From: Escherichia coli
GTDB lineage: Bacteria; Pseudomonadota; Gammaproteobacteria; Enterobacterales; Enterobacteriaceae
Strand: one strand, 5' to 3'
Assembly (NCBI RefSeq): GCF_048403405.1
Contig: NZ_CP183129.1
Length of the DNA stretch: 64,000 bases
Shown here: piece by piece, positions 15,959 to 23,870 of the stretch
Layout of the letters: each line of letters starts with the position of its first letter
Numbering within the stretch: the stretch's first letter is position 1
Position numbers and translations under genes: made by a program
Notes under the pieces: generated by a model
The model's input: the letters and a program-made list of their open reading frames with translations, nothing else
Database searches by the model: none
What the model was told of the DNA's origin: nothing

Positions 15959-16639
15959 TCACCCACTGTGGTATATGCGTTGCGGTCTGCCAACTTTGCC
16001 GTGAACAATTTCAGCAATAATCAGATGGCGGCTGGCGCAATATTCAAGATAACGTCTGGCAGTGGTGCGGCTGATAGTCAGTGCCTGCGCCACCGTTTCT
16101 GCCGTATGTTGCACACCAGGCTCTTTAAACAGTTTTCGCACTGCGTTTAGCGTCAAGGGGTCAATGCCGGTCGGCAGTTCGTCTTTGGGTTCACCGCGAG
16201 CATAGGCATTAAACATCTCATCAATTTGCTTCTGGCTGGCGCTATCAATACTTTCCAGCATATGTTTACGCTGGCGGAAACGGGTTAGCGTTTGCCCCAG
16301 ACGTTCATAGGCAATTGGCTTAATGAGATAATCAAATACACCACAACGTACGGCTTCAGACACCGTTTCCATATCACTGGCTGCAGTGGTAAACACCACG
16401 TCGCCGGGATAATGCGCCTGCACCAGTTCATGCAGTAAATTAATCCCTCTACCGTCAGGAAGATAGTTATCGAGCAAGATTAGCCCCGGCTTAAAACGCT
16501 CGATCATCATTCGGGCCTGCGCCAGGTTTCCCGCCAGTAATATCTGACTGAATCCGGGAATGTGACGAATATATTCCGCATGCATCTCTGCCAGCGGCGT
16601 TTCGTCCTCAACGATCAATAGGGTTAATGGAGCTGTCAT
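15959..16639 (-). CDS. dpiA: Two-component response regulator DpiA (CitB)
   Basis: 226-aa ORF, receiver domain (LIVEDE...D) plus C-terminal HTH. Confidence 0.9.
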   Translation of the reverse strand: MTAPLTLLIVEDETPLAEMHAEYIRHIPGFSQILLAGNLAQARMMIERFKPGLILLDNYLPDGRGINLLHELVQAHYPGDVVFTTAASDMETVSEAVRCGVFDYLIKPIAYERLGQTLTRFRQRKHMLESIDSASQKQIDEMFNAYARGEPKDELPTGIDPLTLNAVRKLFKEPGVQHTAETVAQALTISRTTARRYLEYCASRHLIIAEIVHGKVGRPQRIYHSG

Positions 16640-18266
16640 TAGGTTTCACTTTCGGAATATAGATTGAAAATAAGGTACCGCAGGGATCATTATCTTCGAG
16701 AGTGATAACACCACCGCAGCGCGTTACGTAGCTGGCAATCAAGTACAACCCAATGCCATGTTCACCGGGCTCGTCAGCACGCGTACTGACACCCTGCTCA
16801 AATATTTTGTCTCGTAGAGACTCTGGAACGCCGCAGCCCTGATCGGCGACTTCAATCACCACATCATCGCCTTCATCGCTGAGGAATAATTCAACGATCT
16901 TGTTTCCTTCATCGCTACGTAGGCTGGCTTCGAAGGCGTTATCAAGTAAATTGCCAACAATGGCTGCAAACTCGGTGCTGTCCAGTCCTGGCGGCAGTTG
17001 CGAAAGCTGACTTCCGGGGACGATGACCATTTTTAGCCCCAGTTCGCGGGCGCGCTGCACTTTACCAAAAAGCAGCCCCGCCACCTGGCGATCGGCAAAC
17101 GCCTCGCGCAGGCTATCAATAAGCTGTTGCTGGGCCTGAGACTCCCCCTGCACCATCGCCAACACGCGATCATACTCTTTCATCTGCAACAGACCATTGA
17201 GCGTCGACATCCAATTGAGATGCTCGTGTCGCAATGTGCGCAGGCTCTCGACGTATTGTTTAATTTGCGTCAGTTGCGCATTGAGGGTGGATATTTCGTC
17301 TTTACTACGAAAGCTGATAATGGCCCCCAGCAAATCATCACCAGAACGAATAGCTTCCCGGTTGGCAATAACGCTCAGACCGTTAAAGTTCGCCACCACA
17401 TCCTGTCGTTTTTCATCAATCTGTTCGGTAAAGAAATCGGCGGGCCTGACCACTTCAGCAATGGGTTTACCCAACCATTGCCGTCCGGGGGAGCTCAGCC
17501 CCAGCATCTTTCTTGCGTTACGATTGATGGCGGTAATGTAACCGTGCGGATCCACCGCAATGAGCCCTTCATAAACCGAACTAAACAGCGCCTCTTGCTG
17601 ACGGACCACGCGTGCGATTTGCTTTGGCTCCATGCCCATCATCTGCCGACGGATATGCGCGGCCAGGAACCACGACAGCAACATCAGAATCCCTAACAGC
17701 ACGACAAACACGCCAGCCATCGGTAATAAAAACTCAGCCCGCCAGCTATCGATTTTACTCACCAGGTAGCCAATCGACACCACGCCGATGACTTTTCCAT
17801 CGTCATCAAAGATTGGCGTTTTGGCACGCATCGCCATGCCAATTGACCCTTTCCCGGTGATGAAGTAGCTCTCCCCTTTCTCCAGCGCGCCCGGTTTGGT
17901 GAACTGCATAGGATAACCAATTTTCTCCGGATTAGGATGGTAAAGACGAATCGAGTGCCGATCGCCAATCACCACATAATCGAAATCAGTATCTCTTTGT
18001 AATTTGTCAGCGATGGTCGCCAGCCTCTTGTAGTCACGCGTTTTCACTGCGCTGATGATACTGTCATTAGAAGCAATAATTTTTGCCTGATTCATTGCCA
18101 TGTCGCGCACATGAAGCGTTAAATAGTCCTCAAAACTGGCCGTAAAATATTGCGCCAGGGCTGCAATGACAAATATTGAGAACACCAGAATCAGCAAAAA
18201 GATACGCAGCGGAAATGCCAGTCTTTGGAAAAATGCAAACTGTTTATTCTCGTTAAGCTGCAACAT
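16608..18266 (-). CDS. dpiB: Sensor histidine kinase DpiB (CitA), citrate sensing
   Basis: 552 aa from MLQLNENKQ...; two TM segments, PAS and HATPase regions; overlaps dpiA by 32 bp. Confidence 0.9.
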   Translation of the reverse strand: MLQLNENKQFAFFQRLAFPLRIFLLILVFSIFVIAALAQYFTASFEDYLTLHVRDMAMNQAKIIASNDSIISAVKTRDYKRLATIADKLQRDTDFDYVVIGDRHSIRLYHPNPEKIGYPMQFTKPGALEKGESYFITGKGSIGMAMRAKTPIFDDDGKVIGVVSIGYLVSKIDSWRAEFLLPMAGVFVVLLGILMLLSWFLAAHIRRQMMGMEPKQIARVVRQQEALFSSVYEGLIAVDPHGYITAINRNARKMLGLSSPGRQWLGKPIAEVVRPADFFTEQIDEKRQDVVANFNGLSVIANREAIRSGDDLLGAIISFRSKDEISTLNAQLTQIKQYVESLRTLRHEHLNWMSTLNGLLQMKEYDRVLAMVQGESQAQQQLIDSLREAFADRQVAGLLFGKVQRARELGLKMVIVPGSQLSQLPPGLDSTEFAAIVGNLLDNAFEASLRSDEGNKIVELFLSDEGDDVVIEVADQGCGVPESLRDKIFEQGVSTRADEPGEHGIGLYLIASYVTRCGGVITLEDNDPCGTLFSIYIPKVKPNDSSINPIDR

Positions 18267-18644
18267 TGTTTTCCTTGCGGGTTGTCCCGAGCCTCTTTGA
18301 CGAATGTAATTAAAATGTTGAATCAAAATACATAGATATTAAATATAATCGTGGCAAATTTTATTCATTAAATCAATTAAATCACTTAAACCTGCGGGTC
18401 ACTTCGTAATTACATTAATTAAAAAACTTAAAACCATTAAATAAATAAAAAACCACTAACTCTATGTGAAATAAATCAAAATTTCACGCTGCAATACTCC
18501 TTAGGATGTATAGCGAAAGGAGAAAAAGATATACCTCGATCGCCCCCTTTCTCCCAAGTGAAAATAAAAGGTTATCAGTTTGCAACATCGAACAACATTT
18601 GTTGCAAATCGATAACAACATGCACCTTCAGGATACTATTTATT

Positions 18645-22462: not shown

Positions 22463-22465
22463 GCC

Positions 22466-23017
22466 ATGCACCTGCTTCCTGAACTCGCCAGCCACCATGC
22501 GGTGTCAATTCCCGAGCTGCTCGTCAGCCGGGATGAAAGGCAAGCACGGCAACACGCCTGGCTCAAGCGCCATCCTGTTCCACTGGTCTCCTTTACCGTG
22601 GTTGCGCCTGGGCCGATTAAAGACAGCGAGGTCACACGCCGAATTTTTAATCATGGTGTGACAGCCTTGCGTGCCTTAGCCGCAAAACAGGGCTGGCAAA
22701 TTCAGGAGCAGGCTGCACTGGTTTCCGCCAGCGGGCCGGAGGGCATGTTGAGCATTGCCGCCCCGGCTCGCGACCTCAAGCTCGCCACCATTGAGCTTGA
22801 ACATAGTCATCCTCTCGGGCGGTTATGGGATATCGATGTCCTGACACCCGAAGGCGAAATTCTCTCCCGCCGCGACTATTCACTGCCGCCTCGCCGCTGC
22901 CTGTTGTGCGAGCAAAGCGCAGCTGTTTGCGCGCGTGGAAAAACCCATCAACTGACCGATTTACTCAACCGCATGGAGGCGCTGCTGAACGATGTCGATG
23001 CCTGCAACGTCAACTAA
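22466..23017 (+). CDS. citX: Apo-citrate lyase phosphoribosyl-dephospho-CoA transferase
   Basis: 183-aa ORF. Confidence 0.9.
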
Positions 23018-23870
23018 AACCACAAAGCTTGCGACGTCATTAATCGATGAGTACGCCCTGCTGGGCTGGCGCGCCATGCTGACTGAAGTCAATCTGTCAC
23101 CGAAACCAGGCCTCGTGGATCGGATTAACTGCGGTGCGCACAAAGATATGGCGCTGGAAGATTTTCACCGCAGCGCGCTGGCGATTCAGGGCTGGTTACC
23201 CCGTTTCATTGAATTTGGTGCCTGTAGTGCTGAAATGGCACCAGAAGAGGTACTCCACGGATTACGCCCAATAGGTATGGCTTGCGAAGGTGATATGTTC
23301 CGCGCCACTGCGGGCGTAAACACGCATAAAGGCAGCATTTTTTCTTTAGGGCTACTGTGTGCGGCAATTGGCCGTTTGCTTCAGCTCAACCAGTCGCTAA
23401 CGCCAACAACCGTTTGTTCTACGGCGGCAAGTTTCTGCCGTGGCCTGACCGATCGCGAACTGCGTACCAATAATTCACAACTGACGGCAGGTCAACGGTT
23501 GTACCAGCAGCTTGGCCTTACCGGCGCACGCGGTGAAGCCGAAGCGGGTTATCCACTGGTGATCAACCACGCCCTGCCGCATTACCTCACTCTGCTGGAT
23601 CAGGGGTTAGATCCTGAACTGGCACTGCTCGATACCTTACTCCTACTGATGGCGATCAACGGCGATACCAACGTTGCATCGCGCGGTGGCGAGGGGGGCC
23701 TGCGCTGGCTACAGCGCGAGGCGCAAACATTATTGCAAAAAGGGGGCATCCGAACCCCCGCCGATCTCGATTATCTCCGGCAGTTCGACAGGGAGTGTAT
23801 CGAACGAAATCTCAGTCCAGGCGGCAGTGCCGACCTGCTGATCCTTACTTGGTTTTTAGCACAGATTTAA
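22992..23870 (+). CDS. citG: Triphosphoribosyl-dephospho-CoA synthase
   Basis: 292-aa ORF overlapping citX by 26 bp. Confidence 0.9.

Follow-up and report, generated by a model that had tools for sequence, protein, structure and literature searches.

Among the closest described relatives of the locus studied here are the dpiBA-citCDEFXGT cluster of Escherichia coli K-12 and the citrate fermentation genes of Klebsiella pneumoniae. The latter are arranged as citS-oadGAB-citAB and citCDEFG, and there, too, a divergent operon for citrate lyase is controlled by the CitA/CitB pair from an intergenic region rich in A+T. This citS-citC region is bound by CitB and by CRP, and the differences in arrangement between Klebsiella and E. 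coli are already known (PMC2735749). In E. coli, citC is activated by phosphorylated DpiA in a citrate- and anaerobiosis-dependent manner, according to the accounts given in PMC12405535 and, for Yamamoto et al. 2008/2009, in the passages of PMC9456408 and PMC4797297 that refer to them. The transporter CitT is made in E. coli only during anaerobic citrate fermentation, for which a co-substrate is required (PMC10482366). We analyzed the citrate fermentation locus in a stretch of 64,000 nucleotides of E. coli (contig NZ_CP183129.1, assembly GCF_048403405.1), which we call the window. An initial annotation, made from the sequence alone, had described positions 15959-23870 as a citrate fermentation module with overlapping gene junctions and had labelled it expected biology. 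We uphold this label: the whole locus lies within described biology, and the finding is already known.

The region is almost certainly the core-genome citrate fermentation locus of the species, i.e., dpiBA and citCDEFXGT. Positions 15500-24500 are 100% identical to several complete E. coli chromosomes, the full window has only 4 mismatches to strain 4621 (NZ_CP103479.1), and the cit/dpi locus is found in 5422 of the 5426 complete E. coli genomes. The gene coordinates, starts included, are those of the RefSeq annotation of identical E. coli chromosomes, transferred to the window, and the gene geometry is the same in strain 4621 and in K-12 MG1655. The features by which a K-12-type dpiBA-citCDEFXGT cluster can be recognized are all present, namely the gene order, the strands, and the neighbors rna and dcuC. 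All nine proteins (DpiA, DpiB, CitC, CitD, CitE, CitF, CitX, CitG, and CitT) score above the NCBIfam cut-offs and have the expected Pfam architectures. The identification of a citrate lyase system with DpiBA, made at the outset from the translations, is thus borne out both by the 100% identity to annotated chromosomes and by the scores of the NCBIfam equivalog profiles. We found no evidence contradicting it, and the weak points are confined to mechanistic sub-claims.

On the minus strand, dpiA (or citB; 15959-16639; RefSeq WP_000126500.1) encodes a response regulator of 226 aa, which scores 520 bits on NCBIfam NF007467 (cut-off 264) and combines the Pfam domains Response_reg (8-117) and HTH_64 (162-226), i.e., a receiver (REC) domain and a DpiA-like helix-turn-helix. 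On the same strand, dpiB (or citA; 16608-18266) encodes a citrate sensor histidine kinase of 552 aa, identified with NCBIfam (NF011627, 1227 bits, cut-off 656) and Pfam (sCache_3_2, PAS, SPOB_a, and HATPase_c). The two proteins are the histidine kinase that senses citrate in the periplasm and the response regulator paired with it. An imperfect 24-bp tandem duplication (16014-16060, two copies, 79% match) is also found within dpiA, in its 3' part.

The remaining genes are on the plus strand. The [citrate (pro-3S)-lyase] ligase of 352 aa is encoded by citC (18645-19703; TIGR00124, 593.6 bits, cut-off 262.1, with the profile beginning at residue 7). It is followed by citD (19718-20014), which encodes the citrate lyase acyl carrier protein (ACP, gamma subunit) of 98 aa and matches both NF009726 (143.7, cut-off 65) and TIGR01608 (100.3, cut-off 63.5). 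The CitD translation has a serine at position 14, the attachment residue for the phosphoribosyl-dephospho-CoA prosthetic group. The beta subunit (302 aa) is encoded by citE (20011-20919; TIGR01588, 452.1 bits, cut-off 443.4) and the alpha subunit (510 aa) by citF (20930-22462; TIGR01584, 816.3 bits, cut-off 501.45). Next come citX (22466-23017), for the holo-ACP synthase (apo-citrate lyase phosphoribosyl-dephospho-CoA transferase) of 183 aa (NF002383, 266 bits, cut-off 158; TIGR03124; Pfam CitX at 13-175), and citG (22992-23870), for the triphosphoribosyl-dephospho-CoA synthase of 292 aa (NF007503, 646.5 bits, cut-off 477; Pfam CitG domain from residue 26). CitC acetylates the ACP of a citrate lyase made of CitD (gamma/ACP), CitE (beta), and CitF (alpha), while CitG and CitX build and attach the 2'-(5''-phosphoribosyl)-3'-dephospho-CoA prosthetic group. 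The product of citT (23920-25383, 487 aa), the last gene of the citCDEFXGT unit, is the citrate/succinate antiporter: it scores 573 on the DASS family model TIGR00785 (cut-off 198.6) and 648 bits on Pfam Na_sulph_symp, and its DNA is 100% identical to records annotating CitT as WP_000050323.1.

The range initially given to the module, 15959-23870, holds for its gene content and falls short in extent, since it ends at citG while citT is in the same transcription unit. The gap between citG and citT is 49 nt, and the terminator scan found none there. The predicted intrinsic terminator of the operon is located at 25415-25450 on the plus strand (11-bp stem at 25415-25442 with 9 GC pairs, then a TTTTTTAT T-run). 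Since there is no terminator between citG and citT and a strong one after citT, we place citT within the operon, and the predicted transcription unit is citCDEFXGT, as in K-12 (PMC2735749). Beyond citT lie rna and then rnk. At the other end, dcuC (14533-15918, plus strand, RefSeq) and dpiA converge on a 40-bp gap that harbors a GC-rich terminator-like hairpin (15927-15949, plus strand; 8-bp stem with 7 GC pairs, then TTTAT).

Three overlaps had been reported in the initial annotation, and re-derivation from the sequence, with which RefSeq agrees, shows that all its coordinates and overlap sizes are correct to the base. They are the 32 bp shared by dpiB and dpiA (16608-16639), the 4 bp (ATGA) shared by citD and citE (20011-20014), and the 26 bp shared by citX and citG (22992-23017). 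Re-translation of the genes revealed intact frames with proper starts and stops throughout. Expressed as distances, the junctions are -32 nt for dpiB/dpiA, +14 for citC/citD, -4 for citD/citE, +10 for citE/citF, +3 for citF/citX, and -26 for citX/citG. The six junctions of the cit operon, citG/citT included, range from -26 to +49 nt, with each at most 14 nt except citG/citT. In the largest overlap, the DpiB tail (...NDSSINPIDR and the stop) is read across the DpiA residues MTAPLTLLIVE. The TGA stop of dpiB falls within GTT-GAG, two codons of dpiA for the V-E of the conserved LIVEDE strand, and the overlap measures 32 bp because the dpiB frame continues to this TGA. The overlap segments encode terminal tails outside the Pfam domains: the CitX domain covers residues 13-175 of 183, that of CitG starts at 26, the HATPase domain of DpiB ends at 539 of 552, and the receiver domain of DpiA starts at 8. 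In the longer overlaps these tails are unconstrained, and the position of the first out-of-frame stop determines how long the overlap is.

The junctions were compared across as many as 80 species loci. Starts were called by anchoring on homology, which is a heuristic approach for distant taxa. The genes dpiB and dpiA overlap in 47 of 54 species loci, by exactly 32 nt in 34 of them. The citD/citE overlap is present in all 68 loci (ATGA in 42), and citX overlaps citG by 14 to 29 nt in 52 out of 55. The overlaps are therefore real and conserved across many enterobacterial genera, yet they are ordinary. They are not rarer than expected, because 8 of the 45 same-strand junctions of the window (18%) overlap. 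Other overlaps in the window are those of ybdN/ybdM (28 bp, 33715-33742) and entA/entB (1 bp, 40469), and the 4-bp overlaps of fepD/fepG, fepG/fepC, and entF/ybdZ (47646-47649, 48635-48638, and 54673-54676). The convergent genes fepC and fepE also overlap by 4 bp (49447-49450). Among the species loci, the citX stop is lost in three Citrobacter loci (L009, L016, and L018), where the frame extends about 180 nt into citG, and the matches to cit and dpi are fragmented in C. koseri NCTC10786 (L015) and C. amalonaticus AUH_CA_2023_1 (L063). This suggests cluster decay or sequencing errors.

The initial annotation took the overlaps to indicate tight translational coupling. Judging from the sequence, coupling across the cit junctions is on balance likely. 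For most downstream starts, a Shine-Dalgarno (SD) sequence lies within the upstream gene, with GGAGG 7 nt before the ATG of citE, GGAGG 12 nt before that of citG, AGGTGA before citD, and GAAGGA before citX. Those of citE, citG, and citD are conserved. Tight junctions together with an SD inside the upstream gene would favor coupled, stoichiometric translation. If present, coupling would work by termination-reinitiation or by simple proximity, because no occluding RNA structure was found. Several observations weigh against this reading. Folding of the six junctions in 100-nt windows revealed no structure beyond that of shuffled sequence (z between -1.8 and +1.5), which gives no support to coupling by unmasking. 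The SD that precedes dpiA is a weak AAGTGA. In S. arizonae and in Enterobacter BIGb0383 the dpiB/dpiA distance is -4 instead of -32, since a 1-nt difference in a poly-A run puts an ATGA stop in frame. Finally, comparison of the loci indicates that the overlap length is not itself under strong selection, given these -4 junctions and the loss of the citC/citD overlap in Escherichia, to which we come below.

An alternative to coupling is that the overlaps are neutral by-products: the upstream frame would run to the first out-of-frame stop in the unconstrained 5' end of the next gene, with the downstream genes using their own ribosome-binding sites. The origin of the dpiB stop is in line with this, as it is a TGA made from the conserved GTT-GAG of dpiA and a 1-nt poly-A change suffices to give -4. 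So are the variable length of the citX/citG overlap (-14 to -29), the 14-nt gap that replaces the ancestral citC/citD ATGA in Escherichia while the operon is still kept in 5422 of 5426 genomes, the location of the overlaps outside Pfam domains, their frequency of 18% among same-strand junctions of the window, and the lack of special RNA structure at the junctions. However, the presence of the overlaps, as opposed to their length, is near-universal for citD/citE (68/68) and citX/citG (52/55), and junctions are 14 nt or less throughout except at citG/citT. The lack of a good SD of its own argues that dpiA depends on the translation of dpiB. The nature of the products also counts against the alternative, since one cofactor is handled consecutively by CitX and CitG and the subunits of citrate lyase assemble stoichiometrically. 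Hence, we regard neutral by-products as a possible explanation to which we give limited credence, and retain coupling as the favored reading.

The junction between citC and citD shows how an overlap can be lost. The two genes overlap by ATGA (-4) in 58 of 68 loci, and are separated by 14 nt in all Escherichia. When the Escherichia loci (L004-L008) are compared with the others (L009-L071), the codon at 19701-19703 is TTA (Leu) in every other genus, TGA in E. coli, and TAA in the loci of E. albertii, E. whittamii, and Escherichia sp. E1V33. The CitC of Escherichia is accordingly six residues shorter and lacks the ending ...L-x-T-G-E-K. In the junction alignment, the segment 19701-19721 (plus strand) consists of the citC stop TGA (19701-19703), a 14-nt spacer carrying the citD SD AGGTGA, and the ATGA of citD. 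The aligned codons thus indicate that Escherichia lost the ancestral citC/citD ATGA overlap by a premature stop, which also weighs against a strict need for overlapping junctions: an overlap was lost without loss of the operon, so at least this junction of the cit operon is dispensable. The 14-nt gap keeps the old citC coding sequence unchanged (AACAGGTGAAAAATGA, AGGTGAAAAATGA). As the former coding sequence is retained in this form, the alignment suggests that the constraint on it would be the ribosome-binding site of citD and not the CitC tail.

The divergent spacer between dpiB and citC (18267-18644) had been described as long and AT-rich, and as the expected place of control by DpiA and CRP. 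It is indeed 378 bp long with a GC content of 31.7%, compared with 51.5% for the window, and the motif scan proposed with that description found a conserved CRP-like core and conserved AT-rich phased repeats. In Escherichia, Citrobacter, Salmonella, Hafnia, and Buttiauxella it has a conserved length of about 380-390 bp, and it is collinear with that of K-12, from which it differs at 11 of 378 positions. We aligned the spacers of 23 species, covering these genera, Atlantibacter, Pluralibacter, and an Enterobacter. The window sequence is on average 59% identical to the 17 from outside Escherichia, and it contains sharply conserved blocks that we name A to G. A scan of 15800-25600 against Rfam (E ≤ 1) gave only a chance match to a eukaryotic small Cajal body-specific RNA and no known RNA element.

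Two of these blocks are arrays of TTAAA pentamers. Block C (18367-18390) is a 9-bp tandem repeat of ATTAAATCA in 2.7 copies, as identified by Tandem Repeats Finder, and has 98% column identity across genera at 18369-18379. Block D (18410-18450), located 42 bp (four helical turns) from the first array, consists of TTAAA pentamers with a 9-bp phase and has a core (18417-18438) with 92% identity across genera. The pattern (TTAAA-N4)x3 with at most one mismatch has 4 matches in the 64 kb, all in this spacer, for an expectation of 0.01. The two arrays are probably response-regulator sites, with DpiA and DcuR of the CitB family as candidates. Downstream of them, block E (18465-18480, TGTGAAATAAATCAAA, centered at 18472.5) is a CRP-like site, TGTGA-N6-TCAAA, one mismatch away from TGTGA-N6-TCACA. 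Its TGTGAAA..TCAA is invariant in the 23 aligned species, i.e., in about 8 genera. Block F (18493-18510, AATACTCCTTAGGATGTA) contains the conserved AATACTCCTTA.GAT and, at 18495-18510, a NarL/NarP-like 7-2-7 element, TACTCCT-TA-GGATGTA, which lies over a candidate -10 element TAGGAT (18502-18507). This element, conserved across genera, has 2 mismatches to TACYYMT-NN-AKRRGTA, with a perfect left heptamer and 5 of 7 positions in the right one. The other blocks of the phylogenetic footprint are A (18305-18319, TGTAATTAAAATGTT, with a direct repeat of AATGT at 11-bp spacing), B (18348-18360, ATCGTGGCAAATT), and G (18565-18578, AAAAGGTTATCA). Block A is about 40-50 bp upstream of the dpiB ATG and is a candidate for the dpiB promoter or for a DcuR element.

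These blocks suggest a layout in which the AT-rich spacer of 378 bp would be the shared control region of the dpiBA and citC units. Phosphorylated DpiA, together with DcuR for dpiBA, would probably bind the two phased TTAAA arrays. Taking TAGGAT as the -10 element, we infer a transcription start of citC near 18514, which would put the CRP-like site at -41.5, the class II CRP layout of an activator-dependent promoter. Reportedly, Meyer et al. in 2001 found CRP sites centered at -41.5 at the Klebsiella citC and citS promoters, the same position as the one proposed here. The NarL-like element over the -10 would explain the reported repression by nitrate. The homologous promoter of C. rodentium, in a 2025 study that used E. 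coli as a host, is under the control of DpiAB, NarL, and cyclic AMP (cAMP)-CRP; it is induced by citrate under anaerobiosis, strongly inhibited by nitrate, and loses its response upon truncation of the DpiA sites (PMC12405535). This fits blocks C and D for DpiA, block F for nitrate, and block E for cAMP-CRP.

Other results call for caution. The assignment of the arrays to DpiA rather than to DcuR is that of a candidate. Within the window, the CRP core with at most one mismatch has 3 matches for 1.7 expected, and the NarL 7-2-7 pattern, when up to two mismatches are allowed, has 3 for 2.4 expected, so neither is significant by count; these putative sites carry weight only through their location and their invariance across genera. 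A scan for consensus sigma-70 promoters found none within the spacer, its sole match being inside dpiB. Such an absence is expected for activator-dependent promoters. A further regulator, the LysR-type CitR (YbdO; 31473-32375), is encoded 7.6 kb downstream. Deletion of citR reportedly affects the expression of citCDEF, and we set CitR aside as a direct regulator acting on the spacer given that its peak, in chromatin immunoprecipitation with exonuclease digestion (ChIP-exo), is at its own promoter (PMC9068703). The effect of CitR on citC is thus probably indirect.

The element in block E might be used by FNR for anaerobic activation, instead of CRP or alongside it. Its right half, TCAA, is as in FNR sites, the element matches TTGAT-N4-ATCAA with 2 mismatches, the operon is expressed only anaerobically, and FNR is listed among the regulators of citC in a compilation of regulatory networks (PMC5311112). 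However, its left half, GTGA, is of the CRP type, and the match to CRP is the better one, with a single mismatch. A match to the FNR consensus at 2 mismatches is uninformative, since there are 57 in the window. Furthermore, CRP binds the homologous region of Klebsiella (PMC2735749), and in E. coli the C. rodentium promoter is influenced by cAMP-CRP (PMC12405535). We thus consider a role of FNR at this element unlikely, and keep CRP as its preferred ligand.

The start of citC deserves attention because it affects the reading of an antisense open reading frame (ORF). The annotation of enterohaemorrhagic E. coli (EHEC) has a longer CitC of 381 aa starting at a GTG at 18558, which we rejected: the other Escherichia loci have CTG at this position, stops interrupt the 29-codon extension in other genera, its sequence shows no protein conservation, and both the profile and the homology begin at the ATG at 18645. 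Likewise, a longer DpiB starting at a TTG at 18326 was rejected in favor of the conserved ATG and AAGGA SD at 18266. The leader upstream of the supported citC start contains a 17-nt inverted repeat (18571-18587 and 18600-18616; GTTATCAGTTTGCAACA and TGTTGCAAATCGATAAC), whose predicted RNA hairpin has an energy of -18.5 kcal/mol (z = -5.6). Read on the minus strand, the repeat precedes a T-run and resembles a terminator for antisense transcripts. We rejected the repeat as a generally conserved RNA or operator, as its right arm is not conserved outside Escherichia and the substitutions within Escherichia are non-compensatory. At the same place, AACAACAT is directly repeated (18590-18597 and 18612-18619).

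Fellner et al. (2015, PMC4683798) proposed that nog1, the ORF in question, is a young overlapping gene of EHEC. Neither nog1 nor NarL-type control figured in the initial annotation. By translation, it corresponds here to 101 codons (306 nt) with a GTG start at 18575-18880 on the minus strand, and these coordinates fit the published ones relative to the long citC annotation. If nog1 were a further protein-coding gene that functions opposite the 5' part of citC, the most significant overlap of the locus would be an antisense one. The ORF is intact in the window, in K-12, and in all five loci of other Escherichia species, the published evidence comprises a transcription start from 5'-RACE, promoter-gfp activity, and a competitive fitness defect of a strand-specific stop mutant (PMC4683798), and the minus-strand hairpin with its T-run lies, terminator-like, at the 3' end of nog1. 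On the other hand, antisense stop-free stretches of at least 100 codons are common, with 61 in the 45 genes of the window, 16 of them in the frame class of nog1. The native Nog1 protein was never detected in the original study (PMC4683798), and the profile search gave no family match. Several Citrobacter lack the start codon and still have the frame open, so its openness reflects the codon usage of citC. Moreover, the description of nog1 as completely embedded in citC depends on the 381-aa CitC, which comparative data do not support: relative to the citC start at 18645, the last 70 nt of nog1 are in the citC leader. Taken together, these points make a functional nog1 doubtful, and quite improbable.

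A bolder combination would be that both ends of citC were rewired jointly in Escherichia, by a fixed premature stop at the 3' end and by the inverted repeat in the 5' leader, the latter also ending nog1 transcripts. We think this very improbable. If it were true, and nog1 really expressed, the repeat would be at once the terminator of nog1 and a structure of the citC leader, tying antisense transcription to the expression of citrate lyase and adding a lineage-specific regulatory layer to a textbook operon.

Least credible of all is that the sense overlaps are annotation artefacts and that dpiA, citE, or citG truly start downstream: alternative in-frame starts exist (a TTG at codon 8 of DpiA, an ATG at codon 3 of CitG, and another ATG located 15 nt upstream of where citE starts) and starts were revised in the past at the K-12 locus (versions NP_415151.4 of CitC and NP_415149.4 of CitE), but in Citrobacter, Salmonella, Hafnia, Buttiauxella, and Pantoea the tblastn homology of DpiA, CitE, and CitG extends from residue 1, the start ATGs and the SD-like sequences upstream are kept at the nucleotide level across genera (including the GGAGG 7 nt upstream of the citE ATG), and the full-length NCBIfam equivalog profiles of DpiA and CitG align from position 1.

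We also made several observations in the neighborhood of the locus. An FNR-like site with one mismatch (TTGATTTTAATCAG) is found at 14430-14443, within the 588-bp AT-rich spacer between pagP and dcuC and about 95 bp before dcuC starts, which fits an anaerobically induced C4-dicarboxylate carrier. On the other side of the locus, Rfam identifies the rnk leader (26379-26487, 124.9 bits) upstream of rnk, and within it there is a CRP-like core with one mismatch (26396-26411, TGTGACGCAAATCACT). In the Cit+ lineage of the LTEE, citT was reportedly activated by a tandem duplication in the citT/rna/rnk neighborhood. Further downstream, the window lacks ybdR, which in K-12 lies between yldA and uspG and encodes a putative Zn-dependent alcohol dehydrogenase, and has a 123-bp gap in its place (27176-27298). 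The hokE coding sequence (59496-59648) and an Rfam match to the sok antitoxin (61086-61241) have a copy of IS150 (transposase at 59746-61115, minus strand) between them, so that the hokE toxin-antitoxin locus appears to be split by this insertion. A frameshifted pseudogene is annotated at 61114-61331.

The search for cit and dpi sequences returned some atypical records. In the complete genomes of E. coli, plasmids account for 4 of the cit/dpi matches, and two records have an identity of only 60-80%, from which we conclude that some strains carry a second, divergent citrate cluster. Two of the species loci come from seemingly mislabelled or contaminated assemblies. One is a contig labelled Chryseobacterium sp. 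18061 (L034) with an enterobacterial dcuC-cit cluster, whose CitC is 77% identical, and the other is a 484-bp contig with 0.97x coverage in an assembly of Terrisporobacter mayombei (L081), which is 99% identical to the E. coli CitC.

The locus underlies the classic citrate-negative phenotype of E. coli, and DpiBA connects beta-lactam stress with the SOS response. The PcitC/DpiAB module is in use as a gut biosensor (PMC12405535), and the comparative footprint now provides base-level candidate sites for DpiA/DcuR, CRP, and NarL. Small additions made here are this footprint of the spacer, the loss, specific to Escherichia, of the overlap between citC and citD, and a clearer view of where citC starts with respect to nog1. 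The locus serves chiefly as a calibration point, the earlier call of expected biology being right.

How the locus relates to other systems can be summarized as follows. The paralogous pair DcuS/DcuR has the same CitB-family architecture, and DpiA scores 135 bits on the DcuR model and DpiB 339 on that of DcuS. As these scores are below the cut-offs (262 and 520) and the Dpi equivalogs are passed, the proteins are DpiA and DpiB. Compared with the Klebsiella island, E. coli has neither oadGAB nor the Na+-citrate carrier CitS, and has instead the CitT antiporter, citX in the operon, and a separate divergent citAB. The one Klebsiella locus recovered among the species loci, that of K. spallanzanii (L070), encodes a CitC that is about 55% identical, and it has a transporter gene upstream on the same strand, not a divergent citS. 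The dcuC-dpiAB-citCDEFXGT loci of Citrobacter, Salmonella (arizonae/diarizonae), Hafnia, and Buttiauxella are orthologous to the one described here, with the same gene order and a spacer of the same length (about 380-390 bp). These four genera share the TTAAA arrays, the CRP-like site, and TACTCCTTA.GAT in the spacer, as well as the junctions of dpiB/dpiA (-32), citD/citE (-4), and citX/citG (-26/-29). They differ in that citC and citD still overlap by ATGA, that their CitC has six more residues (...L-x-T-G-E-K), and that they lack both the 17-nt leader repeat of Escherichia and the nog1 start codon. K-12 MG1655 also has the nog1 ORF and the GTG at the position of the long CitC, and its locus differs from that of the window only by strain-level substitutions. 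In its genes b0612-b0620 we find the same order and strands, the same overlaps of 32, 4, and 26 bp, and the same gaps of 14, 10, and 3 nt as in the window.

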